A DNA stretch of 60,362 nucleotides, filler included, from Hausera hauseri (GCA_046269625.1; 12 parts of 12 records of this genome joined end to end with filler, not necessarily neighbours in it), one strand, 5' to 3'. Positions 4,284 through 50,700 are shown, counted from the first letter of the whole stretch. Notes: generated by a model from the sequence alone, not told the origin. Numbers and translations: made by a program.

Positions 4284-4699
4284 CTGTAGCCTTTCAGGTT
4301 CGGAATTTGTTGCATCTGTGGGTAATTGAGGCTTATCATATTGTCATTATGGACTATGTGATATTGATTGGATGGATTTGCATTGATGATGTGATTTTTA
4401 GCATTATTGTACAAAGGCTTGGATCGATTGATAGTTTGAATCTGGTGGAAAGTCGACGATGATACTGTAAAAGATAAAGTCAATGTTGTTTTATACACGG
4501 TACTTAAACACAACACAACGGTTATCATGCAAATCACTACGGTAATCGTTGTGGTTATAGTAGAGTAAATTTTACAGTGAGGGGTAACCAAGTATTGTTT
4601 GGTTATCTTTATTATCAGGGTTGCATATACAGCAATCCCTGAAACTAATTGTCAGCTGGGATTATCCGTATCTAACGGATTCGTTAGATCACGCATATT

Positions 4700-6492
4700 G
4701 ATTTGCACCTAGTTCCTACTCTTGCATCGTAACCGTATTATCTTAATTTATATTATTATTATCACTATAGATACTACTGGGACTAATGACCCAATCAATA
4801 TCGTCTCTAAACGAGAATGTTGGTATGTCGCTCGTGCGGGTTCACTCGTTATCTTATAGCTAACTGTATTTACTTTATATGATATTCCCGTTTCATTATT
4901 TTTCTTTGTAATTGCTGTACTATCTTAGTGCATGTTATTTTATTGCTGTCATCTAGCAACTGTAGGATGATCGTGTATTTTGTGTTGGGGTCCAAAGTCG
5001 CGCATGGTACTACGAGGTCGTCGGGAGTTATGACTCCTTTTGCTACTATTATATCTCGTTTTTTACAACTAAATTTAACTTTTACAAAACCGAAATCTGG
5101 TTTTATAGAAATAATTAATGCGGTAGGGGCTGCTATGATGGTTACGTTATCCCATATGGAACGTTTTTGACGGTAATTGGAAGCATAAGGTTTAATTAAA
5201 ACAGTCATCTCCCTTTTCTCAGCTGAGGAGTGCACAATTTGTGTCGCGAGCTTTTCTTGTATATCATCGTATTCTTTTTGATTTTTATATCGTATAAACA
5301 TAGTCGGTCCTTTTCGTTCTAGTGGATTCAAAAACTTACCGTTTTTCTTTCGAAACAAAGTATAACCGACATGGTTTATTTTTCCTCGGGTAACCATACA
5401 ACAAACTCGTTGTTTACCTTTAATCCTGTAGATTCTGACTTCCAGAATTACTGTTTCTAGCTTCATTGTTATTCGTCGAACACCTACTAATTGTATCATC
5501 GTTATAATCTTAATGCAGCTTCTCCCGCTTTTAAATCCCATTGGTCTTGCTATCAGCTGGTTGAGTATTATTTCGTCTAGTAGGGTTTCGTTCATTTGTT
5601 GTCTAGTAGGGATCACTATTGATCTATAGAATCTTGTTTTCTGACTTCTATAATAATATCCTTGCTTCTTAACAAGTGTAAGATACACGTAATGGACGCC
5701 TGAGCCTTGTACTATACATTGTGTTTGACTGGTCCCTGAGTGGAATAGACAATTATACTGTCGCTCATTAGGATCTCTTTTGTTATCATACCAAGGTATC
5801 ACTTGTATCCCTATTATATATGCTGGGGGCATTTGTTCTGGCATACTCCAGATCATCACTTTCTGACCACTGAATATGTTATACTGTAGAGTTTTCGTTA
5901 ACAGATCTTCTTTTATAGCTATTGCATATCTTATTTTAGCCTGTTCAATTTCTTGATTAGTCATTTGTTTTAGTACTCCAGGAAATAATAAGATGATTAT
6001 TAATAGTAGACCACTTTTTATCTGACGAGTTCTGCTGGTTAAGTTTATTTTGATGGCTTTCTCACTAATACTTCGTACTAACTCTTTTTCGCCTTTTTTT
6101 AGTTTACTCTTTTTAGCCGCGGGTTTACATCTATTGATGTGGACTTTACAAGAGATGTTGTTTTTCCTTAAACAAATATTCGGTAGGTCCACTTTCTCTA
6201 CTTCATATGGTCCTTTATATGGCCTATCCAATTTGGATGCCTTAGCCTTTTTATTAGTCGGCGAATATAACATTACTTGGTCCCCTATCTTAATTTTAGG
6301 TTGTTTAGTTTTCTTATCATAATACCTTTTATATTTTAATTTATAATCTTTTTGGATATCTCCAATTGTTTTGTACGCTGACTGAAGGCGTTCTTGCATT
6401 AGCTGCTTATAATCTTCCACCTCCATTAAGTGAAAAATTGGTTTTACATTAAAATCCAAGTTAATCGGTAATTTTGCGTTCCTTAAATACAT
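4700..6492 (-). CDS. Gypsy integrase C-terminus (GPY motif) continuing in frame into an env-like putative type I membrane protein; frameshifted near the 3' end
   Basis: ORF 4870-6492: DRPYKGPYEV..KVHINRCKP, then hydrophobic LLLIIILLFPGVL, a beta-rich ectodomain, RQKR/S, and LDPNTKYTIILQL. In another frame, a TM-like ILIGSLVPVVSIVIIII followed by IRLRCKSR lies at ~4710-4800. Confidence 0.6.
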
Positions 6493-7560
6493 TAAGTAAA
6501 AAGGGGTCTCTTTGGTAGCCTCATGGACAGATGTTTAATTTACAAAAGTCATCCCATTCATCTTGTCTAGTGTTTACCACCGTTTGTAATTTATCTTTTA
6601 AGTCTTCAATATACCTCTCGACCATTCCATTATTTTCTGGATGTCCGGGTGTGGATTGTAGTTTTAATATCTTTAGCATATCATATATGGCTTGCATTAC
6701 CGTTCCGGTTAAATTTGATGCTTGATCGGTTAAAAGAATTCTTGGAGCTCCATAATTAAATACTATATTCTGTTCGAATTTTTCAGCAATTGTATCGGCT
6801 TTTATATCCGCCATTGGTACGGCAACAACCCATAGACTACAATATATCTATTCCTATTCCGTGTTAATGGTAGAAATCCTGTTTATCCATCACGGTAAAC
6901 TCGAATGGTGCCGGGGGATTGTCCCATACTTTGACAGGTGCTTTGTATTTTGATCCCGTGTTCTTCCGCGTAACACATAATTTACAACTGTCGCACCATC
7001 CCTGTACGTCTTTCGTTATCGTTGGCCAAAAATATTTTCGTTTCAATTTGTTAAGCGTTTTATTTGCTGATTGATGTCCACCAAGTAATCCATAATGGTA
7101 TTGAGTTAACAGAACTGCTCTATTCTTCTTTGAAATTACTAAAATAGATCCATTTTGGTGAATAAAGTATAGAATTCCTTCTTTTTCTTCATATGCTTCA
7201 CTGAATTGGACCAGGTGTTGATCTGCAGGTACTGTTTTGTTTTTTATGTATTCCATGATGGATTTTATTTCCATATCTTCAATTTGATTTGCCCTTATTT
7301 TATCTACGGATCCGTCCATACTCCATACTGCTGCTACAACTGCTTTCTTTGTTTCTGGTTTGTTAAGCATTCTAGATAGATAATCCGCATTTGCGTTTCG
7401 TGAACCCGGTTTATACTGGAAATTCAGTGTGTAAGGTTGTAATTTTAGAGCCCATCATAGCAATCCATTATTTGGATTCTCGTGTTGCTTTAGCCATTGA
7501 AGCGGTCTGTGGTCTGTACAGATTAAGAGAGGTTTATTTTCACTAATATATGGCGAAAAT
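6493..7560 (-). mobile_element. pol: Ty3/Gypsy pol (second family): RNase H end and integrase zinc finger/core, decayed
   Basis: TDHRPLQWL..WALKLQ..YKPG..NADYLSR; GGHQS..YFWP..WCDSCKLC; LLTDQASN, HPENNGMVER. Confidence 0.92.
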
Positions 7561-7607
7561 ACCAATAACTCTTTTTTAATAAAAGATTGATTATTCGGGG
7601 CAGTTTA

Positions 7608-8054
<447 letters not shown>

Positions 8055-8135
8055 TCAGAGGTTAAACATGGGTTGATATGGATATCTAACTGACATACAA
8101 GTCTAAGTGACGTACAAGTCCACCGAGTCACAGCT

Positions 8136-8201
8136 ATGACAACAACAGCAACTGAGGACCTCTTGCAGGTCAATCAAATAGTCAAAGAAAGATTCAAAGT
8201 G
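8136..8201 (+). CDS. TTBK: First coding exon of a tau-tubulin kinase (TTBK/Asator-like)
   Basis: MTTTATEDLLQVNQIVKERFKV then gtaagt donor; resembles the Asator/TTBK N-terminus (EDLLQ...VVKERWKV); upstream acceptor ttttaacag ending at 8050. Confidence 0.7.
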
Positions 8202-8299
8202 GTAAGTCCAGTTTCTCATGAGGTATCCCCCTTCAGTGTTAGTAATTTACTTTGTTAACATTTGGAAATTCCCATTGCAACACTCAGACCAACATCCAA

Positions 8300-8680
8300 A
8301 TATAGGTGAGCTGTATGATGTCAGTGATACTGTAGGAAGCAGAATGTTGGAGAACAACTAAAAAATAAATGTCAGAGTTGTCATCATTCCACACAAAATG
8401 CCTAAAAACATTTGTGATAAAAAAATGACAGCAGATATGTTTTAGACATATGATCCACCAATGATCCTCACCAATGATCCACATGACATTACCAGGACCG
8501 ATGTGAGCTTGACACCAAAGGAAAGCAGAAACAGAGGAAAACCAAAGACAACCTGGCATAGAACAGTAGAAGCTGAACTGAAGAGCATGCATCATATCTG
8601 GTCCACCACCCAGTGGCTTGATCCAAATCGAGAGAAGTGGGAGACTATTTGTAGCTGCACTATGTTGCGCCGCAATATGT
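8300..8680 (+). mobile_element. 3' fragment of an RTE-clade non-LTR retrotransposon
   Basis: ITRTDVSLTPKESRNRGKPKTTWHRTVEAELK..W......NREKW matches the RTE C-terminal WTPxGxRxRGRPKTTWxR..E motif. Confidence 0.75.
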
Positions 8681-8960
8681 GCTGGATACTGATTTCTTTT
8701 ACGGTATTCACCCCAAGGACACACGACTAGACAGTAGTATTATATGTACGTTTGGGGTCGCATTTCTGGATGTGCTCTAATATAGCGGATATAAGTAAAT
8801 ATTCGCGATGTGCCTGGATGTGCTGGCAGTGCTAAATGACTCAAAGAGAAAAATACGATCNNNNNNNNNNNNNNNNNNNNNNNNNNNNNNNNNNNNNNNN
8901 NNNNTTAATTAATTAANNNNNNNNNNNNNNNNNNNNNNNNNNNNNNNNNNNNNNNNNNNN

Positions 8961-21184: not shown

Positions 21185-24100
21185 TGCGAAAGGACGCTGG
21201 CAGCTCATATGAGTGCCACATGTCATCCCAGAGCCATGATAGCCCGGATCAAGACAGAGCTATCAAGGGAAGTGCCATCGATGATTTGGGTGAGAAATTG
21301 AGCGTGACCGCCCCGCTGCGCTACATCCCCTTTTTCTTCTTATTTTTTCCAATAATAAACATGTGTACACATTGAGGGTTGCATACAAGCATACGGCACA
21401 CATCCTTTATTCTGCATTGTCTTCCTTTTTGGGCTCCTCCGATTTTTATTGCATGCACAATGGCCTGACTCTGTTACCTTTCGACTTTCTGTCATCTTTT
21501 GCATCCGGGAAGCATTCAGTGATTCTCACTATCCATTTTCATATCCGTGATGGATCAGACCCTGACTCTTCTGCCGAAAATTTAACCAAAACCAGATCTG
21601 GTCTTCGTCCTGTCGACCCCACACCAAATACATCTCCAAATCTCCCTTGCACTGACTTTTTTCTCGACAAGACGAATTTGAGTTGTACATGGTTACAATT
21701 CCATTTGCAATGGCTTAAAGCCAATCATGTCACAGACTCATTTTTACGGGCGAACAGTTTGCTGCTACTACTTCCAGCTAATATCAAGCAGCAAATCAAC
21801 AATCTTGCTGACATACTTACTTCTTCAAGTCCGTATGTTATGCTTAATGAATCAGTTCTGCATATCACCGACCCTTCCATTGATAGCATAATTCAGAAAT
21901 ACTTTAATGAACATGCCATTGGAAATCAAAAACCAGCGGATTTCCTAAAAACTTCAATCTCTCAACTGAGCTCTTTAGGCGTCACTCATACAAACAATGC
22001 CAATCTTCTTCGTCGATACTTTCTTTTATTATTGCCAACTTCCATCAAAGTGCTGCTCACTGTAGCAGACGACTCTACGGCCCTTGAAAAGCTCGCCTTA
22101 TTGGCAGACAAAAGTTCTGATATTTTGCAATCTAATACCTCACAGCCAGTAGCCCCAGCAACCGCTCACACACCGTCACACACAGATAACACTCTATTTT
22201 CACAACAACTGCATATAATGTAGAAGCAATTCGAGACACTCCAACAGGCATTTTCTGCGATCACAGCCAAACTCAGTGACTTATCCGTGCCTCGAGGAAG
22301 CGAAAACCGTGTTTTGCGCAATCGTAGCTTTTCCAAACACTCTTCTCGGTCCACATCTCGAGATGGTAGAATAATTTGTTTCTATCACAATATATTCGAT
22401 ATAGAAGCAGGAAAGTGTGTTTTGGGCTGTCGATTTTACGATGAAAGTTATGCAGTAGACAACCCAATCTGCATCTATCACACAAAGTATCAGTCCAAGG
22501 CTAGGTCGTGTGTGCCAGCATGCAAATATTATAAAAAGAATTCTAGTTTTTCTCCATCTTCGCCTCCTCTAACTCATCATTCCTCTTCTTTTTTCCATCA
22601 ATCCTCAAAAAAGTAATAATGCCACCAGATGCCACGGCACATTCTGGTATAGGTAATATCGCTCAAACTTCTGGCTGTTTCGACACCGCCTCTGCAGTCT
22701 TCCTGTTGAAAGCTGAAATATTATTTGGAGACACCTCACACATAGACTTCCTTATCGATCCAGGAGCTGCCTTTTCACTTCTTCCTTTGTCTTTCGCTCG
22801 TACATCTAACACAGTTTTCTCTCCTCAACTCTTCACTGCCCGTGGTCAACCACTGAACATTGTAGGTATCACTAAACTGTCTTTCACATTCCCCAACCTT
22901 CCAGTAAATTCTTCTGGAAATTTCACATAGCCAACATCAGATCGTCTATAATAGGCTTCGATTTTCTGGATGCATACGATTTCTTAGTCGACTGCAAGCA
23001 TAGATGCATCCTGCGTAGCAACGCCGTTGCAAATTCCAACATGTGTTTACCAAACGACCAGTCGGACACTTTGTCTTCCTTTGTTCATTCAAATGTCAAT
23101 TTGACATGCTGCTCATCGGCTGATAACAACACGCTTAATAATTCATCAATATTTTCAATTTCATCAAGTGAGAACAAGTCAATCTTGAAACAATCGACTG
23201 AACTGAATATCATTAACAAAGTGTTCTGTGATTCTATATCGATTACAGCTACAGACTCTTCCACTAATATGCCATCATCATTCTTATCGTTGAAATCCAA
23301 TCTTAAATCCTTCATCAAAACTTTTTGCTTCCGCACTCTTAAGAAGGACATCAATTTCAAGCCGCATTCTACAACTTATCACCACATAGTCACCGAACAC
23401 CAAAGACCTATTAGACAAAAGGTAAGGCCATTATCACCTCGCAGACGAAAGGCCGTTGAAGCAGAGTTTAAAGAACTCGAAAAGGCGGGCATTATTCGAA
23501 GATTCAAATCACAATGGGCTTTACCATTGATTGTATTAACAAAGAAAGATGGCACCTACAGACCATGTGGTGACTATTGTCAGTTAAATAATCTAACTGT
23601 CATGGATAATTAACCTCTATCGCTCATAAATGACATCCTGCACAGGCTTACCAACACTAACACGTACTCCACAATTGACTTGCACCTGATGATATTCCAA
23701 AACCTGTCATTATTACTCCGTTTGGCCTCTACGAATATACTTTATGCCATTTGGTTTACGTAGTGCTTCTCAAACTTTCCAACGGCGCATTGATACCGTA
23801 CTCTCAGGCCTTGACTTCGCTCATCCATACATTGATGACATATTAGTTGCCCCTACGTCTGTCAAACAACATCAAGACCACCTTCGTATTATCTTTCAGA
23901 CTACATCACAGCAATTTGAAATTCAACTTCTGCAAGTGTTATTTCTTTCAAAAACGTGTACATTTCCTAGGTCACGTCATCACTCCTCACGGCCACTCTC
24001 CACAACCGGATCGACTACAACAATTGTAGAACATAACTCTACCAACGACTACCACGGACATGAGAAGCTTCTTAGGCACACTCCACTTTATCCACAAATA

Positions 24101-25723
24101 CGTACCTTATTGTTCTGAGCTCACAGCACCTGTTGCATATTTATCATCCGGAAAAAAGAGGCAGCTGATTAACTGGACCCCTGATTTAGTCACTAAGTTT
24201 GATCGCTTACGCGATGGCCTTAAAACCGTCGACATACTGGCCTATCCAAAGTTGAACGCAAATCTTATACTTACCACCGATGCCTCTACCACAGCAACCG
24301 GTGCAGTACTACACCAAATTTCCAACGGGCTTGAAGAACCATTAGAATTTTACTGTAGGAAGCTTACTCAACCCCAAAGCCGTTATTCAACATTTGACCG
24401 TGAGTTACTCGCCATAGTTCTGGCAGTAAAACATTTTAAACACCTACTTCTCTCTCGTCCATTTGTGATTCAAACTGATCACAAGCCTCTCCTGCACATC
24501 ATGTCGTTAAAACAACCATCACCGAATGAAGAGAGACATATAACATACCTGTCTACTTTCAGCTTTGTTTTGGAATATATCTCAGGCACAGATAATTTGG
24601 TGGCAGATTTTCTATCGATGTCGGTTGGCTCCATCACAGTTGAGCCGATTTTCTCATTCGAAGTATTAAAGGCAAATCTACCGTCTGCTGACTTCCTTAG
24701 TTCCTTCAAATCTTTCGAGATCATCTACGGCATAGCCCATGACACGTCAAACACCGGTAATAAAAATATAATTCTAGCACCACCTTTACAAAAGCCAGCT
24801 TTTGTTCATACGCAATCACTCCATCATCCAGGTTCTAAAGCAACTCTTCGCCTGTTACAACGTCATGCAGTTTGGCCGTCAATGATCAAAGATGTACATG
24901 GCTGGGTTAAGAAATGCATAGCATGTCAAAAATACAAAATCAACAAACACCTTAAACCGCCGCTGTACAATTTCCCATGTACATCACGTTTCCATATGGT
25001 TCATCTTGATGTCGTTGGTCCTTTACCTTCTGACAACGGATATCAATATATCCTTACTATGATGGATCGTGCTTCTTGCTAGCCGGAAGCCGTTCCTCTC
25101 CGTTCAACGAACACTGATTCAGTAGCTGACGCCTTTATAAAAATCTGCATCATTTATTTTGGTTCCCCACGTTACATAATAACGGATCAAGGTCCACAAT
25201 TTGAGTCGGAACTTTTCAAATCACTTGTCAGACGCTTGGAGATATCCCATCTGCATACTACACCATATCATCCTTAAGCAAACTGCCTCCTTGAAGGGTT
25301 CCATCAAACAATGGAAATTTCTATAAAAATTTTGGCTGACAATCATCGAAATTGGACATCCATTCTCCCATTTGTTCTACTATGGTGGCACAACACACCC
25401 TCTACCACCACCGGTTGTGCTCCAGCTAAGGCACTCTTTGGGACTCCAATTCAAGCTCTATTTGAACTTTCTGATCTCGACGACAACCCCACAGACGAAA
25501 ATATTTGTGCAACACAATCTCATTTAATCAAGGTCAGCTCAAATTTATTCTGCCGTCTCTTTAACAAGAAAAAATCTTATATTCCAAAGGATTTATACTT
25601 CGCTAAGTTTGTGTGGCTGAATGATCAATCGCCTTCTGGTTTTAGGCCTCAATATGTTGGCCCATACAAACTGCTGAATCTTTCATCTCACATAGCTGCC
25701 ATCTTACGCCAAGATAAACCTTA
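21185..25723 (+). mobile_element. gag-pol: Near full-length decayed Ty3/Gypsy (CsRn1-like): probable 5' LTR ~21185-21410, gag ~21540-22616, PR-RT-RH-IN 22619-25723; 3' end cut by a Polinton terminus
   Basis: Gag with two C-x2-H-x9-C-x3-C motifs; PR FLIDPGAAFSLLP; RT YRPCGDY, MPFGL, YIDDIL; RNase H TTDAS, FDRELLA; IN HLDVVGPLP, TDQGPQF, YVGPY. Confidence 0.95.
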
Positions 25724-26516: not shown

Positions 26517-26619
26517 ACAATGACAGTAAATATAGTGATTTGCGATATGGGTGCATGGTAAACAATTGTCTGTCACAGTTTACTGAATCTTTCATTTGCG
26601 TTTCGTTTAAACTGTTGTA

Positions 26620-27690
26620 ATGCAAGCAAAACCGACACCATCAACGACAGCGATGGGGGACGTGTGGTTCCATCCGCGCCATCCCGTCAGGTATACTGGC
26701 GTCGGCAAACTAGCAAAGACTGTCAAACAGACTCGGCAACAGACCCTATGTTGGCTCGGGAAACAGTTAATATACCGCCTAAACAAACCGATAAAAAAGC
26801 GGTTTCCAACTCGTGCATACCGTGCTGCTGGTGTAAATAATGTATGGCAAATGGATCTGATGGAAATAATTCCGTACTCCCGCATCAACGATGAGTATCG
26901 GTACGTGCTGACATGTGTTGATGTGTTTAGTCGTTTTTCACGTGCAATTACCGTGAAATCTAAATCCGGTAGAAATTGCCAACGCTGTTCAGATTTATTG
27001 CACAACAACAACCAACGAAGCATTTACAAACGGATTTGGGTAAGGAATTCTACAACACACACGTTGAAGCGGTCTTTGAACGGTTCAGGGTAAACCACTA
27101 CTCAGTGTTTTCCAAATACAAGGCTGAACTCGTTGAACGATTTAATCGAACATTGCGCAGTCGCCTAAACAAGTTCTTTACGAAGCAAGGCAACAAACAC
27201 TGGGTAGATGTACTGCTGGATATTATTCATGCATACAATCATTCGACGCATCGTGGCATCAACGGATTATGTATGGTTGACGCAATCGATGATTTGGACA
27301 TGTGGCTTTATCAAAACCGAACACCACAACGACAACGACATGCAATTAAACGCCCAATATATAAAATCGGTGCTTACGTACGTATTTCGAAAATAAGTGT
27401 GACACCATTTATTAAGAATTGCAATCAGAACTGGAGCGACGAGGTTTTCCGCATTTCCGCAATAAACACAAAACAAACACCTGCCATGTACATTTTAGAG
27501 GATGAAAAGGTAAGGAAATACGCGGTAAATTGCACGAACAGGAACTGCAGCTACCGCCTGAGAAACCCTATGTATATCGCATTCAGAAAATTCTACGTTC
27601 ATGTGGGAAAAGTTCGAATAAACAATATCTCGTCAAGTGGCACGGATACACTACACCGAGTTGAATTTTTGCATCACAGATTCAATGAGC
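26620..27690 (+). pseudogene. int: Polinton retroviral-like (c-)integrase with chromodomain-like tail, frameshifted
   Basis: WQMDLMEI, YRYVLTCVDVFSR, LQTDLGKEFYN, KAELVERFNRTL, YNHSTH, QNWSDEVFRI; tail YRIQKIL..YLVKWHGY. Confidence 0.93.
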
Positions 27691-28713
27691 AGCAACATGT
27701 ACTTGGTACTTGATAGTAACGGATCATTGTCACAACATGATGACAATGACAATACCGCTAAACAGTTTACAATTCACTTGGACCAACCGGTCGATTTACG
27801 TCACGGAGCCTGGGAAGTGGCTTTGACGGAATTCACATTCACATTTTCACCAATGACAATACGTCAGAACAGTGGTAATTTACCCGACAAGAAACGTACC
27901 CTACTTTAAGTCGTTTGCGGACAATGCGACACAATAACCGATGTATTCTTCGCAATTATTCGCACCAACATTTCTCGGTTTATGTTTATTTTTCAAACTA
28001 CCGTATGAAACTAATGCATCGAAATCCCATGGAAATGGAGTTTAATTCTATAGCTGATGCTCAGGCATGGGGTATTCAATTCGTCAAAGTACACAACGTC
28101 TACGGCTAGATGGACATGTTATAATTGGTGAAAAATTGGACCTTTCGTACAATCAGTCTTCCGCTCATATATTATACCACACGATTTATTAATGGAAACG
28201 AAACTGGAATTGTGTGAGTACGTCAAGAAAACGGCTACAATAGCCGTAAAGACATGTTAAATAAACGCAGATGGTCATATTTCGATTATACTATATGACA
28301 ATGTTACATATTTTGCCTTTGATGAATTATTGGCTCGAAATCTGGGTTTTTCACAACGTGAATTCTATCAAAACATTGTTGGACGATCTAATGTTGCCAA
28401 ATACCAACCACAACTCTATGGAGCATTTCATCGAATCAACATTGTAACGGACTTAACCGAATCCGTACTCGTTGGCGGAGAACGTAAACAACTGTTGGCT
28501 TCTATCGAACTGGATTCTGACACGTACGAAACATCATCATCGGGTGAAACTGTTCGCGTTATTATGTTCAGACCTATGTACTTATCATTGTCTCACAATA
28601 TTGTACACAGTATTTGCATGTATATGTATGATGAATTTTGGGAACCCATTAAATTTCTGTTCGGGTCAACGACACATTTGACGTTACATTTTGGACGTCG
28701 TCAACGCCGATAA
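27685..28713 (+). pseudogene. Polinton minor capsid (penton-like) protein, copy 1
   Basis: MYLVLDSNGS..NTAKQFTIHLDQPVDL..WEVALTEF at the start; DLTESVLVG..LL..PMYLSL..HLTLHF at the end. Confidence 0.85.
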
Positions 28714-30519: not shown

Positions 30520-30792
30520 CCCCCAAAACCACTTTTCTTTCAGGTGACCTTTAACCCCTTTCCTTACGGATTTTTCATCCGGTCACGCTTTTTGCGTCAT
30601 TTCCTGCCCGGATATTACGCAACTTCCTGTGAAAATTGCGCAACTTCCGTTGGAAATTGCGTAATTTCCTCCGGATGTTACGCAATTCGGACCGGAAGTG
30701 ACGCAGTTTCCACCGGAAGTTGCGCAATTCTACACCGGAAGTTACGCAATCGGGGGGTGGGGGTGGCCCAGAACCGGCAATTTTATACTACT
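30520..30792 (-). mobile_element. Polinton terminal inverted repeat of a different family
   Basis: Minus strand begins AGTAGTATAAAATTGCCGGTTCTGG; interior differs from the other two termini and holds ~22-bp CCGGAAGTTRCGCAA repeats. Confidence 0.75.
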
Positions 30793-33700
30793 CGCACGGC
30801 ATCTGATTTCGGAGCCAGACAAACTTTGCAGAATATAAATCCTCGGGTAGGTACGTTTTATTATTATGTAGTATTTTGCAGAATGAATCTTTACTGACAA
30901 AGACAGAGTGGTCCTGTGCCGTTCGGATAGCTTCGTATGTAGGTGTATCTTTCAAGGCGATTAGCTCAAAGAATGAACGTACAGGTGCTCCGAATAGAGC
31001 TGCCATAGGTGAACAACCTGTAGAAGTGGAATGAGTGTTTCGCCAACCCAGTAGAATTAACGGAAGAAGAGCTGTCCAACTGCTATTGGATTCAGCGAGG
31101 ATTCTCAGTGACGTTTTCAGTGTTCTGTGGAATCTCTCTAGAAGACCATTTGATTGGGGGTGATATGGTGTTGTGTGTATATGGCTGATTCCTTATCGGT
31201 TAAAGAGTGATTTAAACAAGTTTGACTCAAACTGAGTATCTTGGTCCCTAATAATGAATCTAGGGAATCCAAATCTGCTGATCTAAGTACGTATGGAAAC
31301 GTCGGTTATTGTGTCCGTGTTAATGCTCCGTATAGGGACAGCTTCTGGCCATCGTGAGGAACGAACCATCATGGTCAAAATGAACTAATGACCGTTGTCA
31401 GGGGAGAGAGGGCCAACAAGATCTATATGTACAAACTCGAAACGCAATGTGCAAGGGAAATGATATAGTAGTGGCTTCAAATGCTTGATGGTTTTAAATG
31501 TTTGGCAGACCACACATTCCTTAACCCACGCTTGCACATCAGAACGCATAGTCGGCCAGATTACTTGTCGGTGAAGCAAGCGAAAGGTGGCCTTAGCACC
31601 AGGATGATGTACTGAATGTACGCTGTTGAATGCCTGTTTTTGCAAGGCAGGAGCTAAGGTTACTGTCCTGGTTTAGACATGTCGAAGGCCACACCGTCAA
31701 TGATATTGTCAGGTCGAAAAGATTTAAGCATGTCTGAAGGTAGTTGGTTTTCTTGCAGCTGATTTTGTGTCAAATAGGCTTAAAGTTAATTGAGCCAACT
31801 GACCTTGATAGAAAGTTGGCGACTAAGTTATTTACACCGTTAATGTGTTTGATCTCAAAATTTAATGTCGACAAGTATGAGATCTGTCGTTCCTGCCGAG
31901 ATGATGGGTGTTTCATTGTCATTATATTGATTAAAGGCTTGTGGTCGGTCTATATGGTAAAGTGGCGAGCAGTAAGTAGATGGGAGAAGAGTTTTAATGC
32001 GAGAACTATGGTCAAAATCTGTCGGTCAAACGTTGAGTACCTAGCTTCAGGAGGTATTAACTTGGGTGGAAAAAACTCCAAGGCCTGGTTTTCTCCTCGA
32101 TGAATTTGATGAAGTACTGCGCCTACTGCGGTGGTGGAGGCATCTGTAGTGAGGATGAGCTCTGCATCATGCTTAGGGAAAGCTAATATTTCTACTGTTT
32201 TTAAACCTTCTCTTAGCTTTTCGAATTTGTTTACTAGTTCGAAAATCCATATTATTGGCTGATGTTTTTTCCGCCAGAGGTGAGCAAATGGTGCAGTAAG
32301 TTTAGAGCAGTACGGCACATACTTGTGAACGAAGTGCAAAATTCCAAAAAAGCTCCTCATTTCTGTTATTGTTCGAGGTAGCTGCACAATTTTTAGGGCT
32401 TCAAGTCGATCGGGCTGAGGCAAGTTACCTTCAGAAGAAATAATGTGACCAAGGAAATTTATGCGCTTCTCGAAAATGTGACATTTGGCAAAATTTATCT
32501 GCAGGTTACATTGGTGTAAACGTTGAAAGATTGATCTGAGGTGTTCTCGTGTTGTTGAGTCGAAGAGGAAACAATTTATATGTCATCGATATAGGGGTGA
32601 GCATGTGGAAAATCAGAAATGATAGCATCGATGTGGCGTTGAAAAGTCTGCGCAGCATTCCGTAGGCCTAAAGGCATGTACCGATATTCATAAAAGCCAA
32701 AAGGTGTAGTTACGGCTGTTTTTTCGATATCTTCAGGTGCCATCGGAATTTGGTAGAAGGCTTTGAATAAATTAATGGTGGAATAAATTGTGGTGTTATT
32801 AAGACGGTGTAAGATATCCTTAATGAGTGGTAGTGGGTATGCATCCATTATTGTCAAAGTGTTTAACTAATAATAATCACCACATGGTCTAGAAGTTCCG
32901 TCCTTCTTTTGCACGACATGCAATGGCTCCGACCATGGGGATTTGGAGCGACGCACGATTCAGGAACGTTCGAGGTCTAGAAATTCGGCTTCAACGGCCT
33001 GTCTACGACGAGGAGATAATGGACGCCGTTTTTTTAGCGGATAGGTCTTTGGTGTTATGTTGCAATGTGGTGAAAAGTGGTATTTGCTGGTCTCTTTTTG
33101 AATTATTCCAGAACAAGATACGTTGATTAATTGCTGCAGACTTGCAGGTAATTGTGAAAAGTTTGGTGGAAGTAAGGTAGTTTTATCAGTAACTGTTGCA
33201 ATTTGGGCGTTATTTGGTGATCGAAAATGAAGTGGTTTTCGATGCGGGATGGTAGTATTGAAGGTGGTATTGCAGGTGGTAGTGTTATCTAGTGATTTGG
33301 CAGTGGTAACGGAATCACGCTCATCGCCGTGCAAACCCCAATCGTCAGTAATATTGTTTTTCTATCATTTACAAAACAAGGTTCCATGATTGTAAAAAAA
33401 GGTTTGTTCAACGGTTTTTTTAATATCAGTTTTCAAGTTGCATTCACCCGTACGACAGTCTAAATGGTATCGGCGTGATCGATTAGCTCCTTATTGCAAC
33501 CACTTGTTAAGCAACGTTGTTTTCAATCGACAAGGAGATTATAGTGCGAAAGGAAGTCGGATCCTAAAATGGCTGTCTGGAAGTTTGCAACGGTAAACGT
33601 CCAGTGGAACGTTGGAGTAAATTTCTGAATAGTAAAAGAAAGCTTACAAGTACCGGAAACATGTAGCGGTTGTCCGGAAGCTGTAAGTAGAGGTTTATTT

Positions 33701-34790
33701 TTGGTGAAGTGTGTTGAGTTGGAAAGGTGAGCGGCAGTAAAGAAATCGCTGCACCTGAATCGATAAGGAAGTCTATTTGGCGAGTTGTTGGTAACGTAGG
33801 TACTGCTTTTACTGTAAATACGGCGAAAGAAAGTTTTCAGCTGGTATAAACTGGAAGATGGCCTTCGCCAAGACTCGCCGTAAGCTCTGGCGGAGGAACT
33901 AGTTTTTTGGCAGTGGTGAACTTGGGCGGCTGTTAGAAGGCAAGAGAGAATGTCCTACATTCGTATGTTGAGTGTTGCTTCTAAAGGTACAAGCAGTGAT
34001 ACACTTATGTGCATAATTCTTAAACTTTGCGTGGTAAATGCAAATAGCGTTGTTAATTTGATACTTTTGGGTGTAAACGCGGTACCCGAGATGACATTTT
34101 TGTGCTTTATGTGCAAACCTATCATGGTAAAACAGATCAGCGATCGCCCAGGAGAAGGAGACCGACCTCTGGTACTGAGCATATGCGATCGGAGGCGGAA
34201 CCCTTTCGTGGATTCATAGAGATTTCATTTAATCTATCGTTGATATGGTTTATTGTATTATGTAGGGCTGCGTTTTTGGCTCGCACCTGTTGTATTTGAT
34301 ATTTTAATGTGTTGTCGTTTGCTGTAAGCGCCGCAGAGATGATAGGTTGTGTGTTAAATGTAGAATCTCGTACGTTTTGTCTGCAAGTTTGGCTAACTTA
34401 TCTAGCGCCGTCGATTTCTCGATGACGGTAAACAGGGTCTTGATCTGAATCGGTAATGCGTTTAGAAAGTATCGTCGTAAGAGATCGGAATTATTTTGTT
34501 TTGTAACGCCGATTGTTTGCAGTTGAGCGAGACAGATTCTGAGAAAATCGGATGGTTTAGTGTACCCATAGCCTTATCATTAAAGATTCTATGGATTATG
34601 GAATATATAGACTGTTCCTTGAGCTTTAAAACTGCATTATAGAGATGGGTGTATGGGTTGGATTGTTGAAAGATGTCTAAAATATCATGAAGAGAAGTCT
34701 TTACTGTGTTTGGTAAGAGGTAAAGTAAGCTATGAGCTTTGGCTGAGGGATCGGTAATACAGTTAGACTGCAGCCAAAGTTTGTGAAAGT
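30793..34790 (-). mobile_element. gag-pol: Decayed Ty3/Gypsy (CsRn1-like) gag-pol; IN C-terminus cut by a Polinton terminus
   Basis: Gag with doubled CxxH knuckle (~33970-34140), FLIDSGAAISL (~33745-33780), YPLP, MPLGLRNAAQTFQR, YIDDI, TTDAS, HIDLVGPL, AKFVWL. Confidence 0.94.
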
Positions 34791-39658: not shown

Positions 39659-42600
39659 GCCGGTGTACCGTGGCTGAAAACCGACCGGAGTTTGGTTTTT
39701 TAACCAAACGAATTTAGCTGTGTAAAGGTCGTTAGAAATGTATGGTCGATTGCCATGTAGAACTCTACAAAAGCGTCTTTGTTAATGGCAACACAATGTT
39801 CCTGGGCCGCCCGAATTGTTCCATCAGTAGGTGAGTTGTCCTGCTCAGTTAACTCGAAAAGGGCACGTAGTGGTGTGCCAAATAGGGCTTCCGACGAGGA
39901 GCAACCGGTTGATGTGGATGGGGTGTTTCGCCATCCGAGTAAGATAAAAGGTAGAAGGTTTACCCAATGGGGGTTATGTTCAGCTAAGATTCTGAGAGAG
40001 GTTTTCATTGTACGATGAAAACGCTCTAAAAAGCCGTTCTACCGGGGATGGTAGGGTGTTGTGTTGATGTGAGATATGCCCAGTCGATTGACTAGTGATT
40101 TAAAGAGACTCGACTCGAATTGGGGGCCTTGGTCGGTGATGATGTGTTTGGGTGAGCCGACTCGGCTGAGCCATACACGTATGAAGGCGTCAGCTATGGA
40201 CTCAGTGTTTGTGGATCGAAGTGGAACTGCTTCTGACCATCTAGACAAACGGTCCATTATTGTGAGGATAAATTGGTGACCGTTGTCTGGTGGAAGAGGG
40301 CCGACGATATCAAGATGGACAGTATCAAAGCGTGACGTACAGGGAAAATGATAAAATGGCGGCTTTAGGTGTTTAGTGATGTTGAATTTTAGGCATGCCG
40401 CACACTCCTTAACCCATGCCTGTACGTTTGTTTTCATTGATGGCCATGTAACGTGGCGTTTTAAGAGGAGGTATGTGGCCTTATATCCTGGATAGTGTAA
40501 GGCATGAATATTTGTAAAGGCTATTCTTTAGAAAAAAAAACTAGTATTATTTTAGGTCATCCAGGGTCGGTGGTATCGAAGGCCACGCCATCAGTGATTT
40601 TGACTAATTTATAGGAAGTGAGAGTTTCATCATCCGGTTGATTCCGTTGAAGCGCCTCGTTGTCTAAAATTGGTTTAAATGTTATCGAGTCAACTGAACG
40701 TGACGAAAAATCAGCTACAACGTTGTCTGTGCCATTTATATGTTTTATGGTAAAATTGATAGTTGACAAATAGGATATATGTCTTTCCTGACGTTGAAAA
40801 GGAGATTTCATGGTGAAAATATGTAGCAGCGGCTTATGGTCTGTTTGGATTGTGAAGGTGCGTGGTATTAAGAGATGTTTGAAATGCTTAACTGCGAGGA
40901 CCATTGCGAAAAGTTCTCTATAGAAGGTAGAGTACTTTTGTTCTGTTGTAGTAAACTTTCTAGAAAAGAACTCTAAAGGTTGATGAGCGTTGTTTTTAAA
41001 TTGCTGGAGTACTGCGCCTGCAGCGATAGTTGATGCGTCCTTTGTAAGAAAAAGTTCTGATGTAGAATCTGGATAGGCTAATATTTCTTCTGTTTTGAGA
41101 TTTGTTTTTAGGTGTTCAAAAGCATTAACAAGGTCAGGTGTCCAAATAATGGGTTGTTTCTTTTGACCAAAACTTAAGTCAATTAAAATATCATCGATGT
41201 AGGGACATGCGAAGTCTAAGTCTGCGAGGATGGTGTCTATATGCCTCTGAAAGGTTTGGGCTGCACTGCGCAAGCCAAGTGGCATGTATAAATATTCAAA
41301 AAATCCGAAAGGAGTTGTTACTGCCGTTTTTGGAATGTTTGCTGGTGCTACAGAGATTTGGTGATATGCCTTATGGAGATCGATATTTGATAAAATGGTG
41401 GAGCCGTGAAGTTTACGTAGGATGTCATTAATTAGAGGCAAAGGGTAGGCGTCCATGGTTGTGATCTGATTCAATTGCCTGTAGTCACCGCATGGGCGAA
41501 AAGATCCGTCCTTTTTTGGGACAACATGTAATGGCGACGCCCATGGAGGCTTTGATCTTCTGATTATGCCTAAGCGTTGTAGTTCTGAAAATTCGGCTTC
41601 GACTGCGTGTCTGCGACGTGGGGATAATGGTCGTACTTTTTGTCGTATGGGTCTCTCGTGTTCTGTGACAATATGATGAAAAGTGTGCATGGCTGGTTTA
41701 AAAGCTTTGTCTTTCTGCAACAAACGAGTGCAAGAAGAAAATTCATTGGATTGCAACTCCAGTGAAAGTGATGATAACATGGTTAACGGTGATGCTGATG
41801 TTGCAATTTACTTAGCGTCAGTTAGGGAAAAAGTTGTACTATCAAAACTAGTTGGAATTTGGTGCAATATTGTGGAATTGAACATGGTGTTGCGAGCGGT
41901 TTTGTTAGCAAAAGGCGTCAAAGAGTTGGCATTATCATATTTGTCAAATGTATTATAGTAGTCTCTAAATAAGGGATGATTATAATAATACTTTAAATCA
42001 ATATGTGATTTTTTAAGAGCAGGTTTACGACCAGTGATCGTCCGCTCAATCGCCGAAATGATATTCACGGTATTAAGTTGTTCAAATTGGTTTGAGTTAA
42101 TAAAGCAACAGCGTCTACAGTCCACCAGTAATTGGTAATGGAACAGGAAATCTGATCCCAATATAGGTGTTTGGACATTGGCAACTGTAAATATCTAATT
42201 GTATGTGCTTTTGTTATGTGGTAATGTAGAGGTGATATTTGTAGTGCCGAATACGTTTAATTCTGCCCCTGATGCAGTGAATAATTTTTTGTGTAAATGT
42301 GTTTTGTTATGTACCTTATATTCAGGAGGAAGCAGAGAGACAGCTGCTCCAGTGTCTACGAGGAAGTTGATGTTATGTTTTATTGGAGTAACGACAGTTG
42401 CCTCCAAAGCAAAAACTGCAAATGTTGTGTTTCGGCTGCAATTTTGTAATGTGGACAATTTGCTAGAGGTGGCCGATGACTCTAGCGGCTTCAATAGTTT
42501 TCTTGTTGTGTTTGGTGTTGTTTGTTAGTTGCGGGTTGCCTAAATTTATTTGTGTTAAAATTGCAGCCTAGTAAACATTTTATGGCCTTATTGTTGAATT

Positions 42601-43918
42601 TAGAATGGTATATGCAAATTTTGTTGCTTGATTTGAATTTTGGTTCAAAAAAATTGCACCCGATGCAACATTTGTGTGAATTATTTTTAAAATTGGTATG
42701 ATAATAACAAATTGACAATTGTACGGGCAATTGCGATCGTCTGTTGCACAGTGGGTGTCTGTCAGAATGGGCGGCACCAGGGAAATTTTGTTTTGAGAAA
42801 GTAAATTGGTTGTTGGTAAATATGCTGTTGATGGTTTCTAACAGCTCTTTGTTGTCGGCTTTTAATTGAGTTATTTGTTCATGAAATATGTTTTGTTGTA
42901 TATCATATGGTGTGATGGTAGTAGAGATAAGTGGGGGGAGTGTGCATTTGCAATAATTCATATGATTTGTCAGCTAATTCAGTTAATTTATTAAGGTCTA
43001 ATGACTCTTCAAACACGGTTAACGGACCCTTAATTCGTGAGGGTAGAGCATGGAAAAAATACCGTCTTAAAAGATCTGCGTTGTGTTTCTGTGTTACTCC
43101 GAGTGCTTTCAAGTTATTTAGAGCTATTTCTAAGAATTGGGAGGGCTTTTGATTGCCTAGGGTGTTTTCATTAAAGTAGCATTGAATAATAGAATCTAAA
43201 GAAGGCTCTATAAGATTAAGGACAGCGTTGTATAGCTCCTTGTAAGGATCAGGATGTTCAAAGAGTTGTAGAAGATTGGATATTCGAGTTTTAATTAAAT
43301 TTGGTAGATAGTAGAACAGACTATGGGCCTTTGGAAGAGATTCGGTGTGTTTGCATATTGCAGCCAAAGGTAATGAAATTGAAGCCAGGTTTGGCTTGAG
43401 TTCTGACTGTCGATAAAGAATTCAGTACCGTTGTGGCTGAAAGGGAGGCCGTGAGGTGTGACTGTACCGGCGCAACGTAATATAGGAATAGACTTTGGCT
43501 TTTCAGTGGTATTGATCAAAGGTGGCGAATTCATGCCGCCAAGAATTTTGAAATTGATTTGAATGAGAAAGGAAGTCTGTCGGAAAAGGAGAAGATCATA
43601 AAAGTTGTGGATGATAAGGCCATTGTAAGATAAGAAAAAGTTAGAAGTGCCTAAAAGGTTAGCAAGGTGGTGGTAGATTCATGTTGTGTGTAGTGTGTCT
43701 GTCCACGGATATGTATATATACTTTTATTATTGAGTAAAAATTGGAGGGAAAGATAGGGGGTTTGGGCGACGGGTGGGCATTGTGGCGCGTAACGCAAAA
43801 GCGCCCGGCGCTCGGACGGCATTGGAGCGACAGCCCGACGCATGGCACTACCTCGCTGGCGTGGCAACCTCTGAGTGGCCGAAGCTCCGTGACCGGGTCC
43901 GGCAGCCGCTCGACAACT
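39659..43918 (-). mobile_element. gag-pol: Decayed Ty3/Gypsy (CsRn1-like): 5' LTR ~43684-43918, gag 43534-42491, PR-RT-RH-IN to the contig end
   Basis: Two CHCC motifs, FLVDTGAAVSLLP, WASPLHVVPKKDG.FRPCGDYR, YIDDIL followed by an internal RT deletion, HLDIVGPLP, TDQGPQFES. Confidence 0.95.
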
Positions 43919-47780: not shown

Positions 47781-50700
47781 TTTATTCCAAACGCAAATGC
47801 CTGCACGCCCAACTCTTATTTCGCCGCACCCACTTACGCTTATAATCATTGCATGATAAAGCGACTTTTGTACTGGTCACCGATACAGCTGGTGCTCAAT
47901 CGATCGGATGATTGTTTGAGACACAACAGCTTTTGATTGTCCTTCATAGATACTGCAATAATCACCGTGGTCGATTTCCGTCTGTCTCAGCTGGACTCCT
48001 TTTGCCCGCATTTTCTGCCCACAATCCGTCAGAAGACTGTAGCATTTTGGACGTAGGAATATCCATTTCCGATACTGAACCCAACCTTTACTTTCATCCT
48101 TGAAGCAGCCGATTTTGTTTATGATGGCATTGCTGTACAATGGATGATTCTTAGGGTAATTGGATGTGTCCAGTAATCCGTCTGCCATCATTTGTTGCAG
48201 TAGTTTTTCGCGATTGACCTTTTCCACTTTGAAGGAAAAACTGTGTCACTGGCAATCATATTGATCCTGCCGTCGCCGCCGAACATTTGACGTTAACGTG
48301 CCAAATCGCGATACTGCAGCTCATACATCTGCAACTTGCTCAGGTCCAATTCCACTTGTCCGATGTAACTTGGTCGGTTCAGAACGACTTCTTTTCTGTT
48401 TAGAAGCTCGGAAACCAATCCATTGGCAATGTGCATTGACCTCCGAACTGCGCCTTACTCGTGTACGTGACCAACCGCTTTTCGCTATTCATAGGTGTAC
48501 ATTAAGCCGCTTTTTCAGATTTTCCACTTTTTCCATACAGGGAATTGTTTTTCAGCTTGTAGTAGTCCTTTTCGAACTTTGTACAAGCTGCAACTCGTTT
48601 CTCCGAATTTCCATCTATGTACGCCTTGAATATGGGAGCCTGAGAAAATCGGATTGCACGATGTAGCCGTGTGACGCGTACACCCAACTGCATGTAAAAT
48701 TGCAAGACGCCAATGAACTGTAATTTTGCTTGGGTTCATGCGTCATAAGCAGTTTCTTCACCTTCAAGCCTGGCGGATATTGGCTAAATGGCGTGACTGG
48801 TAAATCGTCCAAAACGTCATGCAGCTCATCTGGTATCACAAGATCGACCTCCATCAGGCACCCTATTGAGGCTGCCATGTCTGCTCATGGGAGGCTGACC
48901 ATTATGTCGTCCAGATCTTGTCTGTCGACAACGCATTCAAATGAACTGTACGGCAAGGGTTGCAAAAGCGCCCAGCCATACAGGCTATTAATATCAATAT
49001 ACAGCAGTGATGTGGTATCGGTAGCACTGACCTGATGCTTGTTGACAAATGTCCTGCCGCCGCGAATACCAACATCAAACAGCCGGTACATTTCCAGGTC
49101 TTGTAGCAGCTCAATGTCTCGATCCAGTGACATCAAAGCTGATGCCCAAATCATTCCCGGTATGGAATAAAAGTTGAGTGGCTCCAGCCTATCTTCAGCC
49201 AACACTTTCGCTTGAAACGCCTGGAACACATCAGCCAACAGATACACATCCAGTTTAAGATACTGGAGCATGTAATCCAATATGTTTCTACAGCCGAGTT
49301 CTATCCAAGATTCTTGTGCTCGCTGATATTCAAGTTCTGTGATTCCTGTCCATTGCGGCGGTAATTCCTCTGCTGCCCGGAGTCGCTCATATGATGTTCC
49401 AAAGTCATATGGAAATATGCCTTTGCTGCGTGCAATGTGTTGGAAACTGCGTCAGTGCTATCAGCACATCCGGTAAGACATTTACCAGCTTCGCCAGTGA
49501 TTCATTGAGAAATTGCAATGAATCAAGGAAGCGTACCTGGAACCGTTTTATGCGTGCTGACAGGAACAGGTACTTCTCCACTGTTGTGGGGATTATGGAC
49601 AGTTCCCAGTGTGGAAATCCGTTGATCGTCCATTTCAGTATATGGTGACAATCATAACCTCGGAAATTATGAAAGATCACCCGTAGGAATGGCCGCACAC
49701 GCCTCGCTAAATTGCATGCGTTGCATGCTGCTCCAAAGTATCTACCGGTAAAATTGTCATGATCCGGTACGAGTCATTTCTGTGCATCAAACGGTAATAT
49801 TTTGTGGCACAGATAACATTCCTCTGTGACTGCAAACGTCAGGCGTTCATCTTCATCTGTCCAAATAAGGTTTTGCGCTGTTATTGCAATACCGCGGTGC
49901 GATTTCCGATTCAACTAATGTTTCCAAATGATGCAGGACATGACGCACACGGTTCCGGCCGTGAAACATGTAATACTGCGGTTGACCTGCAACTTTTATT
50001 GGGACAACCAACATTCCGACGGCAATTGGAAAATGTTTTTGATCGTATACGTCGTGCCGTGGTAGGATTGCCTCAATATTAGCATATATCACATGCTGGA
50101 CTGTCCGTTTTAGACCAGTCACTAAATCGCAGATCCTTTTTGACTGGCATGACATTCATTGTTGTTCCTGATGCATTCTGCACAGCGTCACATGTTTTCA
50201 CCACGTGGTTTCTGATCTGAAGCCATGCAGACATATAAGACACCGTTTACAACATATTTGTTTTTGGACAAACTGATGGTGATCCATGTTCGACAGTCGG
50301 TCCAAATTTGTTACGGCCACGTAATGGAATTTTTCTGCCAGCTCCTACAATAAGAAATTTACTGTGCGGCCATTCAGGACACACATGTGGATTCTTGTAA
50401 ATTTCTTCGTTTGCCGGTATCTTAACTATTGTATTGTACCAGAACACGTTGATTGACAGCCTCGGATTACGCCGTTCAAATGTTGGACTGGTTTTTAGTT
50501 TCATCGGCATCCAGTTTTCGTCGAATTGCAATTCGGAAAAATACTGTCGATACTGACTTGGACGATATGCACTGACTGCCCACTTCGTCATATTTTAATA
50601 CCTCCAGAATACTGTAAATAAAACAGTAATCATCTTCCGTGTTTTTTACATTCACTACCGTATGAGTGCTTTAGAGCTTCAGGCGTCGGTATGAATGAAC

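Follow-up and report, generated by a model that had tools for sequence, protein, structure and literature searches.

A Ty3/Gypsy long terminal repeat (LTR) retrotransposon family of Hausera hauseri carries two membrane proteins in a single reading frame: a gB-type fusion protein between gag and pol and, fused to the end of the integrase, a predicted type I membrane glycoprotein built from three fibronectin type III (FN3)-like domains. One copy lies in the stretch analysed here (the window: 60,362 nt, made of 12 joined parts of genome GCA_046269625.1; positions are counted along the whole window), where a first-pass annotation had described a Gypsy integrase running into an unfamiliar env-like protein. 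Downstream of the FN3-like protein come a conserved stop codon, three predicted RNA hairpins and a second, in-frame open reading frame (ORF2), all lying beyond the point at which that annotation ended.

The post-integrase extension is a family trait rather than a chance fusion with flanking DNA. A DNA search of the genome, starting from 966 first-look candidates, gave 40 scored matches, every one of which passes E≤0.001; the 39 besides the window copy show 76–93% identity. The integrase-to-signal junction is held in a single frame at 5 of the first 11 loci that span it (the other six are frameshifted or deleted there) and at the better-kept loci L099, L101, L103 and L110. Three contigs each hold one stop-free frame of 3,270–3,279 codons with the junction included, in keeping with the suggestion that the protein is made as a Pol fusion.

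All three long frames share one order of Pfam domains: Ty3_capsid, zf-CCHC, Bcl-2, PF24664, RVP, RVT_1, RNase H, H2C2 and rve, followed by the FN3-like protein. They thus have the protease–reverse transcriptase (RT)–RNase H–integrase order, the Ty3-type capsid and the CCHC knuckle of Ty3/Gypsy (Metaviridae) elements; the knuckle is single, and the Ty3_capsid match exceeds its curated cut-off in one of the three. PF24664, a gB/Monjiviricetes-type fusion protein, is matched between knuckle and protease over profile positions 3–627 of 653 (E 1e-89 to 6e-91). Directly before it sits a Bcl-2-like domain (PF00452, E 2e-4 to 9e-3, under the curated cut-off). As a gB-type fusogen already lies between gag and pol, the post-integrase protein is the element's second membrane protein. 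An LTR pair in contig C511016 (815 aligned columns, 93.5% identical) encloses both the long frame (ORF1) and ORF2 in an element of ~13 kb end to end, placing the extension between LTRs. A primer-binding-site-like TGGTGCCGTGAC follows directly after the 5′ LTR and is presumably complementary to tRNA-His; no polypurine tract or clean target-site duplication is evident at this LTR-bearing element.

The Bcl-2-like domain before gB (aa 776–842 of locus L180, G000:C511016; L024, 3–1202) is strongly conserved, with 78% identity between subfamilies whose synonymous sites are saturated, and 99% inside a close pair. Two further copies have internal deletions: in L051 (about 1400, G000:C427697) the Bcl-2-like region is joined to the gB end, and in L021 (about 7086, G000:C884290) the deletion runs from RT to the integrase tail, with the FN3 region and ORF2 kept. 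Both are possibly non-autonomous forms.

The window copy itself is a dead, decayed member of the family. It occupies contig G000:C521347 (4,577 bases, window 4284–8860), with every feature on the minus strand, and is 5′-truncated within RNase H at ~7590. What remains of pol is broken, as the first-pass annotation had it. A C-terminal RNase H piece (7455–7586; PF17917, E=5e-4, and tblastn against an uninterrupted relative) runs from the truncated start to an in-frame stop (7457–7455). The end of RNase H and the integrase zinc-binding domain follow at 6867–7454 (protein P0002; PF17921 at aa 108–165, E=5.1e-18), and then the integrase core, frameshifted here, with the C-terminal part at 6013–6866 (rve, E about 1e-11 in relatives), GPY lying at 6213–6205. 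Frame changes fall near 6885–6844 and 6560–6530. A stop-free frame of 554 aa (P0001, 6534→4873) then passes from the integrase tail into the new protein and stays open for about 380 codons from the signal start, the last ~13 being off-frame after a frameshift near 4910. The transmembrane segment and its basic cluster resume in another frame from 4810. The early description of a membrane anchor behind one frameshift holds for the anchor itself and had overlooked two further in-frame stops, at 4750–4748 and 4711–4709, in the end of the transmembrane segment and the tail.

The FN3-like protein would begin at an internal signal-peptide-like segment (5968–6012), containing LLLIIILLFPGVL and recognized by hydropathy, with predicted cleavage before Q-[LM]-[TS]. 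We modelled the region with AlphaFold2 from an alignment of 59 natural stop-free pieces, 35–86% identical to that of the window (mean predicted local distance difference test score (pLDDT) 76, predicted template modelling score (pTM) 0.59). The model has a short N-terminal helix and three β-sandwiches at residues 22–118, 127–229 and 269–351, which correspond to a membrane-distal domain D1 (5611–5901), a central D2 (5278–5586) and a membrane-proximal D3 (4912–5160). A low-confidence linker (5161–5253; pLDDT<50 at model residues 238–268) precedes the third sandwich and ends in the furin-type RQKR (5172–5161), and D3 carries the L-x-P-x-T-x-Y-x-I motif at 4995–4969. A stalk, a transmembrane helix from about 4800, a basic stop-transfer cluster and a short cytosolic tail occupy 4655–4911. 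The signal-like segment, furin-type site and FN3-like motif of the first-pass annotation are thus all in place, and its β-rich, FN3-like region resolves into three predicted domains.

Structure searches agree on this fold. From the PDB, Foldseek lists ectodomains of tandem-FN3 proteins or cytokine receptors, among them those of contactin, the leptin receptor and fibronectin (best E 2.6e-8), and its viral matches are mostly phage proteins with FN3. With VIA-align, D2 and D3 superpose on FN3 β-sandwiches: D2 on 6e3k_E of the interferon (IFN)-γ receptor complex (Z 9.5, root-mean-square deviation (rmsd) 2.6 over 92 residues) and D3 on fibronectin extra-domain B (Z 9.2, rmsd 2.6 over 82 residues). 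D1 aligns only within D1–D2 pairs, and a weak profile similarity links D1 with D2 (E=0.0016, Prob 16%). Neither phlebovirus Gc nor gB is among the matches listed for the fold, a listing that does not exclude them.

Conserved sequence features fit a secreted, membrane-anchored chain. Nine cysteines are conserved, each in at least 70% of the rows that cover it, and four sequons are kept in at least half; D1 holds conserved Cys 36, 72 and 83 and a sequon, and D3 two conserved cysteines and a sequon. The signal-like segment has a small residue (G, A or S) at −1 in 11 of 11 long relatives, R-x-[KR]-R is found in 25 of 28 copies, and the transmembrane segment (51 copies) has a median KD19 of 2.91 with 6 K/R within the next 14 residues. 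The chain is accordingly predicted to be a type I membrane glycoprotein whose ectodomain comprises three FN3-like domains. Sequence searches gave it no relatives: P0001 matches neither Pfam fn3 nor any other Pfam family, and homologues outside the H. hauseri genome number 0 among 1,530 candidates, 0 among 3,088 longer candidates and 0 in 1.84 billion representatives searched with the shallow profile A1. PDB sequences gave no significant match, and profile A3 found no FN3 chain. The absence of a recognizable env family, remarked on from the window alone, therefore extends to these searches, which matched no env or other family.

The FN3-like protein is under purifying selection, with a dN/dS ratio (omega) of 0.15–0.17 over D1–D3 in 13 copies, a rough value since dS is near saturation. 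It also diverges faster than gB. Between L180 and the pair L181/L183, gB is 86% and RT 93–94% identical, as against 35–37% for D1 and 68–69% for D2/D3. L181 and L183 are 99% identical in gB and 71% in D1 (synonymous distance (pS) 0.64 versus 0.24); the raised synonymous distance of D1 suggests that this domain has been swapped. In the 25 of 58 rows that cover all domains, mean identity rises from D1 (51%) through D2 (56%) to D3 (65%), making D1 on average the most variable. Membrane-distal variability is usual for receptor-binding or immune-exposed surfaces and is not proof of either.

These patterns give about an even chance that the FN3-like protein is a separate attachment or host-contact glycoprotein, whose head would bind a host surface molecule while gB would fuse. 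Several of our own figures weigh against this assignment, besides the roughness of omega already given. The FN3 fold is generic and by itself gives no function (Z 8–9.5 against a tool background of 7–8, identities of 1–14%, pTM 0.59), and the whole-chain TM score in Foldseek is only about 0.2. D1 is the lowest domain in 206 of 300 pairs, a modest excess of variability, and omega, below 1 throughout, gives no proof of positive selection. All copies share common ancestry, so that copy counts are not independent events.

It is doubtful that the protein is instead a captured cytokine- or adhesion-receptor-like decoy on the producing cell, from which furin would shed a D1–D2 head to soak up host ligand. 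Class II cytokine receptor chains do appear among the top VIA rows, matched over D2 or D1–D2 (6e3k_E, 4doh_B and 5t5w_A), but fibronectin, Tie2, LAR and bacterial sandwiches lie within 1 Z unit of them. WSXWS, the type I cytokine receptor motif, is absent in the A3 rows examined (30 of the 59 in that alignment), and the searches gave no sequence link to cellular receptors. Poxviruses secrete cytokine-receptor decoys, and the element's Bcl-2-like domain and dead exonuclease (see below) would both suit host control; sharing a frame with gB, however, would make the protein equimolar with gB before processing, as suits a component of the particle.

Also conceivable, and decidedly unlikely in our estimate, is an intracellular role, in which signal and transmembrane segment tether Pol or the assembling particle to the endoplasmic reticulum (ER), or the protein helps gB to fold, the luminal domains being structural only. 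Translation directly after the integrase is in keeping with such a role, as is the well-kept end of the cytosolic tail (W-[IV]-R-I-x-[LM]-R...P-S). A conserved furin-type site, however, implies passage through the late secretory pathway, and rapid change of D1 while gB stays 86–99% identical fits an internal partner poorly.

That the FN3-like protein is itself a new kind of fusogen is very improbable: signal, furin site, moderately hydrophobic post-site residues, transmembrane segment and basic tail do resemble a surface/transmembrane (SU/TM) layout, but in the model the residues after the furin site are strands of D3, with no helix over 4 residues after residue 135 and neither the free fusion peptide nor the heptad-repeat helix of a class I (F-type) protein, the listed fold matches are FN3 arrays, and a complete gB-type fusogen stands in the same frame. 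The idea of a new captured surface protein or envelope is accordingly supported in part; with a complete gB-type fusion protein between gag and protease, the FN3-like protein is a predicted surface protein and probably not the envelope fusogen.

Behind the cytosolic tail lies a conserved stop codon, TGA in the window copy (4652–4654, context AGC TGA CAA TTA). Walking upstream from ORF2 at 30 loci with no stop assumed, we find that 24 of the 27 scored walks end at the conserved site (23 at TGA-CG[GA], one at TAA-CAA-TTA); 3 are rearranged, and 3 more loci leave the contig. In a larger census of 63 copies the stop is TGA in 60 and the +4 base is C in 61; UGA-CGG accounts for 31, UGA-CGA for 18 and TGA-CAA for 9, and one divergent copy has TAA-CAA-TTA. 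The stop that terminates ORF2 itself varies, by contrast (TAA 19, TGA 8, TAG 3; C at +4 in 5 of 30).

Three predicted hairpins follow the stop (4514–4638 in the window copy, at 4638–4618, 4608–4582 and 4553–4514). In 57 of the 59 copies scored (four cut-off copies were left out) the spacer from the stop to the third hairpin has a length divisible by three (7 in-frame lengths), and in 57 of 59 its frame 0 is free of stops. pS is 0.20–0.32 in four of seven 8-codon windows between +8 and +63, against 0.66–0.85 in the coding domains. An overlapping ORF as the cause of this dip is ruled out by stops in frames +1 and +2 in 59 of 59 copies. The RNA covaries: 89% of cells are paired, against 26–45% in slid controls, and both partners have changed in 11 of 26 pairs, a level that none of 500 shuffles reaches. 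These figures are favoured by the hairpins having first been spotted by eye in the tested rows, and the shuffles ignore relatedness. RNAalifold recovers the same three stems independently, and a separate test of the hairpins gives z=−2.49. Rfam returned nothing but a chance mir-216 match (E 0.22), and hairpin 2 contains a conserved AG that, judged by eye, would make a weak splice acceptor (purine at −3).

A stem of the GAU[UA]/[AU]ACC type recurs in all three hairpins, with the A·C mismatch always in one relative position (unpaired in 16, 23 and 31 of 32 rows), as if the hairpins were repeated binding sites for one protein.

A conserved stop, C at +4 and conserved 3′ structure are together the hallmarks of type I and II programmed readthrough, and the sequences probably reflect such readthrough rather than a start of ORF2's own. 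As set out in PMC3159437, UGA-CGG/CUA with a 3′ stem-loop defines the type II context and stop-CAR-YYA the type I context. The alphavirus, tobravirus, furovirus and tobamovirus signals treated there have the same UGA-CGG and stop-CAR-YYA contexts as the H. hauseri copies, and known signals likewise combine reduced synonymous variation with covarying structure, found here within about 140 nt 3′ of the stop. They differ in having one long stem (PMC3159437), where the element has three short hairpins beginning 13 nt after the stop and UGA-CGA is common.

Two observations count against readthrough. The 63-copy census demanded a stop after the tail motif and is blind to stop-less copies, and in 55 of 59 copies the hydrophobic segment of ORF2 opens with an NTG (TTG 29, ATG 21, CTG 3, GTG 2), a possible start codon. 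Under this second explanation, which we think rather unlikely, ORF2 would start at the NTG in hairpin 3, on a subgenomic or trans-spliced RNA or by reinitiation, and the hairpins would be a packaging, export or initiation signal. It draws further on the only outside homologue of ORF2 (P0003), whose gene call starts at a Met immediately ahead of the hydrophobic segment, and on the likeness of the repeated GAUU/AACC-type stems, with their A·C mismatch, to protein-binding sites. Yet the 33–42 codons from stop to NTG hold frame and are stop-free in 57 of 59 copies while the other frames always contain stops; in all 32 rows the G of NTG takes part in a base pair, and L, M or V suits a hydrophobic segment. 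Nor would an own start call for a fixed stop identity and +4 C, so different from the terminal stop of ORF2.

ORF2 continues in frame from the conserved stop and is open for ~467–487 codons in many copies; in the window its first 122 codons (4284–4651) include the hydrophobic segment and are cut by the contig end. Elsewhere the order is hydrophobic segment, β-rich domain, ISG20-like exonuclease region and basic cluster, with the first Met anywhere between codons 3 and 127. Profiles match ISG20L2 (7yw5, E 1.4e-4) and ISG20 (1wlj, E 0.002) over about 65 positions, and PF00929 scores weakly in 3 of 28 members (best E 0.031). Similarity to the core of the DEDDh (ISG20/REX4) fold is thus present. 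The catalytic positions, which we take to be D, E, D, H and D, are not: ExoI reads [AV]-A-[VI]-N-L-A-Y-D and ExoIII L-R-S-T-A-L, the register outside the matched core having been set by eye. Judged by these residues, the exonuclease region would be catalytically dead, binding nucleic acid and not cutting it. The topology of ORF2 is contradictory, which sits awkwardly with our account: an invariant sequon (31 of 31) and a C-terminal basic cluster (31 of 31) point in opposite directions. One homologue outside the genome was found among 1,202 candidates (P0003, 53%), and metagenome contigs gave 59 pattern matches, none of them confirmed. Single-sequence folding of an ORF2 piece reached pLDDT 32 and no usable model.

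A quick tree divides ORF2 into several subfamilies, with L069 on a long branch. At L129 (G000:C4525) ORF2 is 536 codons long and query part 50–86 is matched twice, which suggests an in-frame internal duplication.

Much of this architecture has precedents. The planarian Burro/GYPSM1 elements encode one polyprotein with a BCL2-like motif and then a mononegavirus-like glycoprotein between gag and protease, followed by RT, RNase H and integrase (PMC6431247). The order in H. hauseri is the same, down to the Bcl-2-like domain (under the cut-off) directly before an in-frame env that precedes the protease. Burro, as described there, exceeds 30 kb, with an ORF of 4,873–5,140 aa and two or three knuckles, against ~13 kb, 3,270–3,279 aa and one knuckle here. 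It also has MATH, BIR, ankyrin, SUMO-like and dUTPase-like domains, calls that are partly HHpred-based (PMC6431247), for which the H. hauseri frames have no Pfam match at E≤1. The H. hauseri element works like a compact Burro-type GAG–ENV–POL Gypsy element that falls short of Burro in size. The words 'fibronectin' and 'readthrough' do not occur in the text of that review (PMC6431247).

Chary and Hayashi (PMC13524379) describe GAG–ENV–POL 'errantiviruses' with an HSV/gB-type env in Platyhelminthes, Nematoda and Bryozoa, and the H. hauseri element has its gB-type env in the same place, between gag and pol. The start of its gB resembles, in a comparison by eye alone, the Schmidtea 'C1a' rows in supplement 2 of that paper. 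Likeness to these elements and to Burro makes a flatworm the probable host. Readthrough, exonuclease, Bcl and fibronectin occur nowhere in the main text of PMC13524379, where annotation ended at the POL stop, so that a post-integrase extension or a readthrough ORF could have gone unremarked.

Partial parallels exist for the downstream part too. Soybean SIRE1, a Ty1/copia element, reaches an env-like ORF by stop-codon suppression (PMC2829016) and is likewise an LTR retrotransposon with an extra ORF set off from the pol frame by one stop. It is a plant copia element in which readthrough leads to the env-like ORF, whereas the H. hauseri stop follows a second membrane protein and leads to a pseudo-nuclease. 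The bdelloid LTR elements Juno and Vesta carry a DEDDy ORF3 with intact catalytic residues and no transmembrane segment (PMC5408684). They too are invertebrate LTR elements in which an ORF of the DEDD superfamily lies behind pol; ORF2 is instead ISG20/REX4-like (DEDDh by its best matches), lacks the acids, begins with a hydrophobic segment and stands in frame behind a stop. Cellular tandem-FN3 receptors (contactin FN1–3, fibronectin, leptin receptor, IFN-γ receptor, Tie2 and LAR) share the predicted fold and type I topology of the FN3-like protein, but at 1–14% identity and with no Pfam fn3 match no specific parent is identifiable. The parts with known counterparts are thus the position of env between gag and pol, the BCL2-like motif, the DEDD ORF (in rotifer LTR elements) and readthrough behind pol (in SIRE1). 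In the literature searched (titles and abstracts, with most subscription journals and Repbase outside its scope) we found no description of an animal Gypsy element with a triple-FN3 membrane protein fused to Pol, or with a post-pol UGA that is backed by hairpins and leads to a pseudo-exonuclease.

Other features of the window are independent of these proteins. Two exons of a furry/MOR2-PAG1-like host gene (7608–8054, minus strand; PF14222, E 1.6e-13; intron about 90 bases) end ~35 bases short of the 5′ truncation point of the window copy. Their G+C content is 0.45–0.49, compared with about 0.35 in the element, and there is no second copy of the stretch among the 42 matches listed. The element may have inserted into an intron, the exons may have been captured, or the contig may be chimeric. 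On the plus strand, 8136–8201 holds a short exon that starts with ATG and has a GT donor, ~80–120 bases away from the furry-like exon of the minus strand. It has no Pfam match and is reminiscent of the tau-tubulin kinase N-terminus. Several env-less Gypsy elements of a different type, in decayed form, occupy 1–2040, 21294–25721, 30791–33954 and 40042–43421 (gag–pol pieces in translations). By eye, pieces at 26611–28710, 48888–49451 and 51700–53636 resemble Polinton/Maverick-type integrase, minor capsid and protein-primed DNA polymerase. No tRNA genes were found in the window.

Put together, these elements would use a single frame for Gag, the Bcl-2-like domain, the gB-type fusogen, protease, RT, RNase H, integrase and the FN3-like protein. 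Two internal signal peptides would send gB and the FN3-like protein into the ER, with Gag and Pol staying cytosolic, and signal peptidase would separate the FN3-like protein from the integrase. Furin would then cleave between D2 and D3 to separate a head of two domains from a membrane anchor with only one; the head may contact a host surface molecule and gB may perform fusion. The fixed UGA-C stop with its three hairpins would be read through part of the time, adding the ~475-residue ORF2. As a whole we propose this only tentatively: a two-protein entry machine as in herpesviruses and paramyxoviruses, pairing gB with a fast-changing, furin-cleaved triple-FN3 attachment protein, from a polyprotein that crosses the ER membrane at two points and in which a hairpin-tuned leaky UGA rations a pseudo-nuclease.

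For the annotation of such elements, stopping at the POL stop or at the first recognized env can miss whole genes, in this case both the surface protein fused to Pol and the ORF probably reached by readthrough. The signal for this readthrough occurs in dozens of natural variants that together cover two known context classes and three covarying hairpins, and could serve directly as a substrate for reporter assays. How elements with a gB-type env enter cells without the partner glycoproteins of herpesviruses is stated to be unknown in PMC13524379. A second conserved surface glycoprotein in the gB frame is a concrete candidate for such a partner, and makes the question of entry testable.

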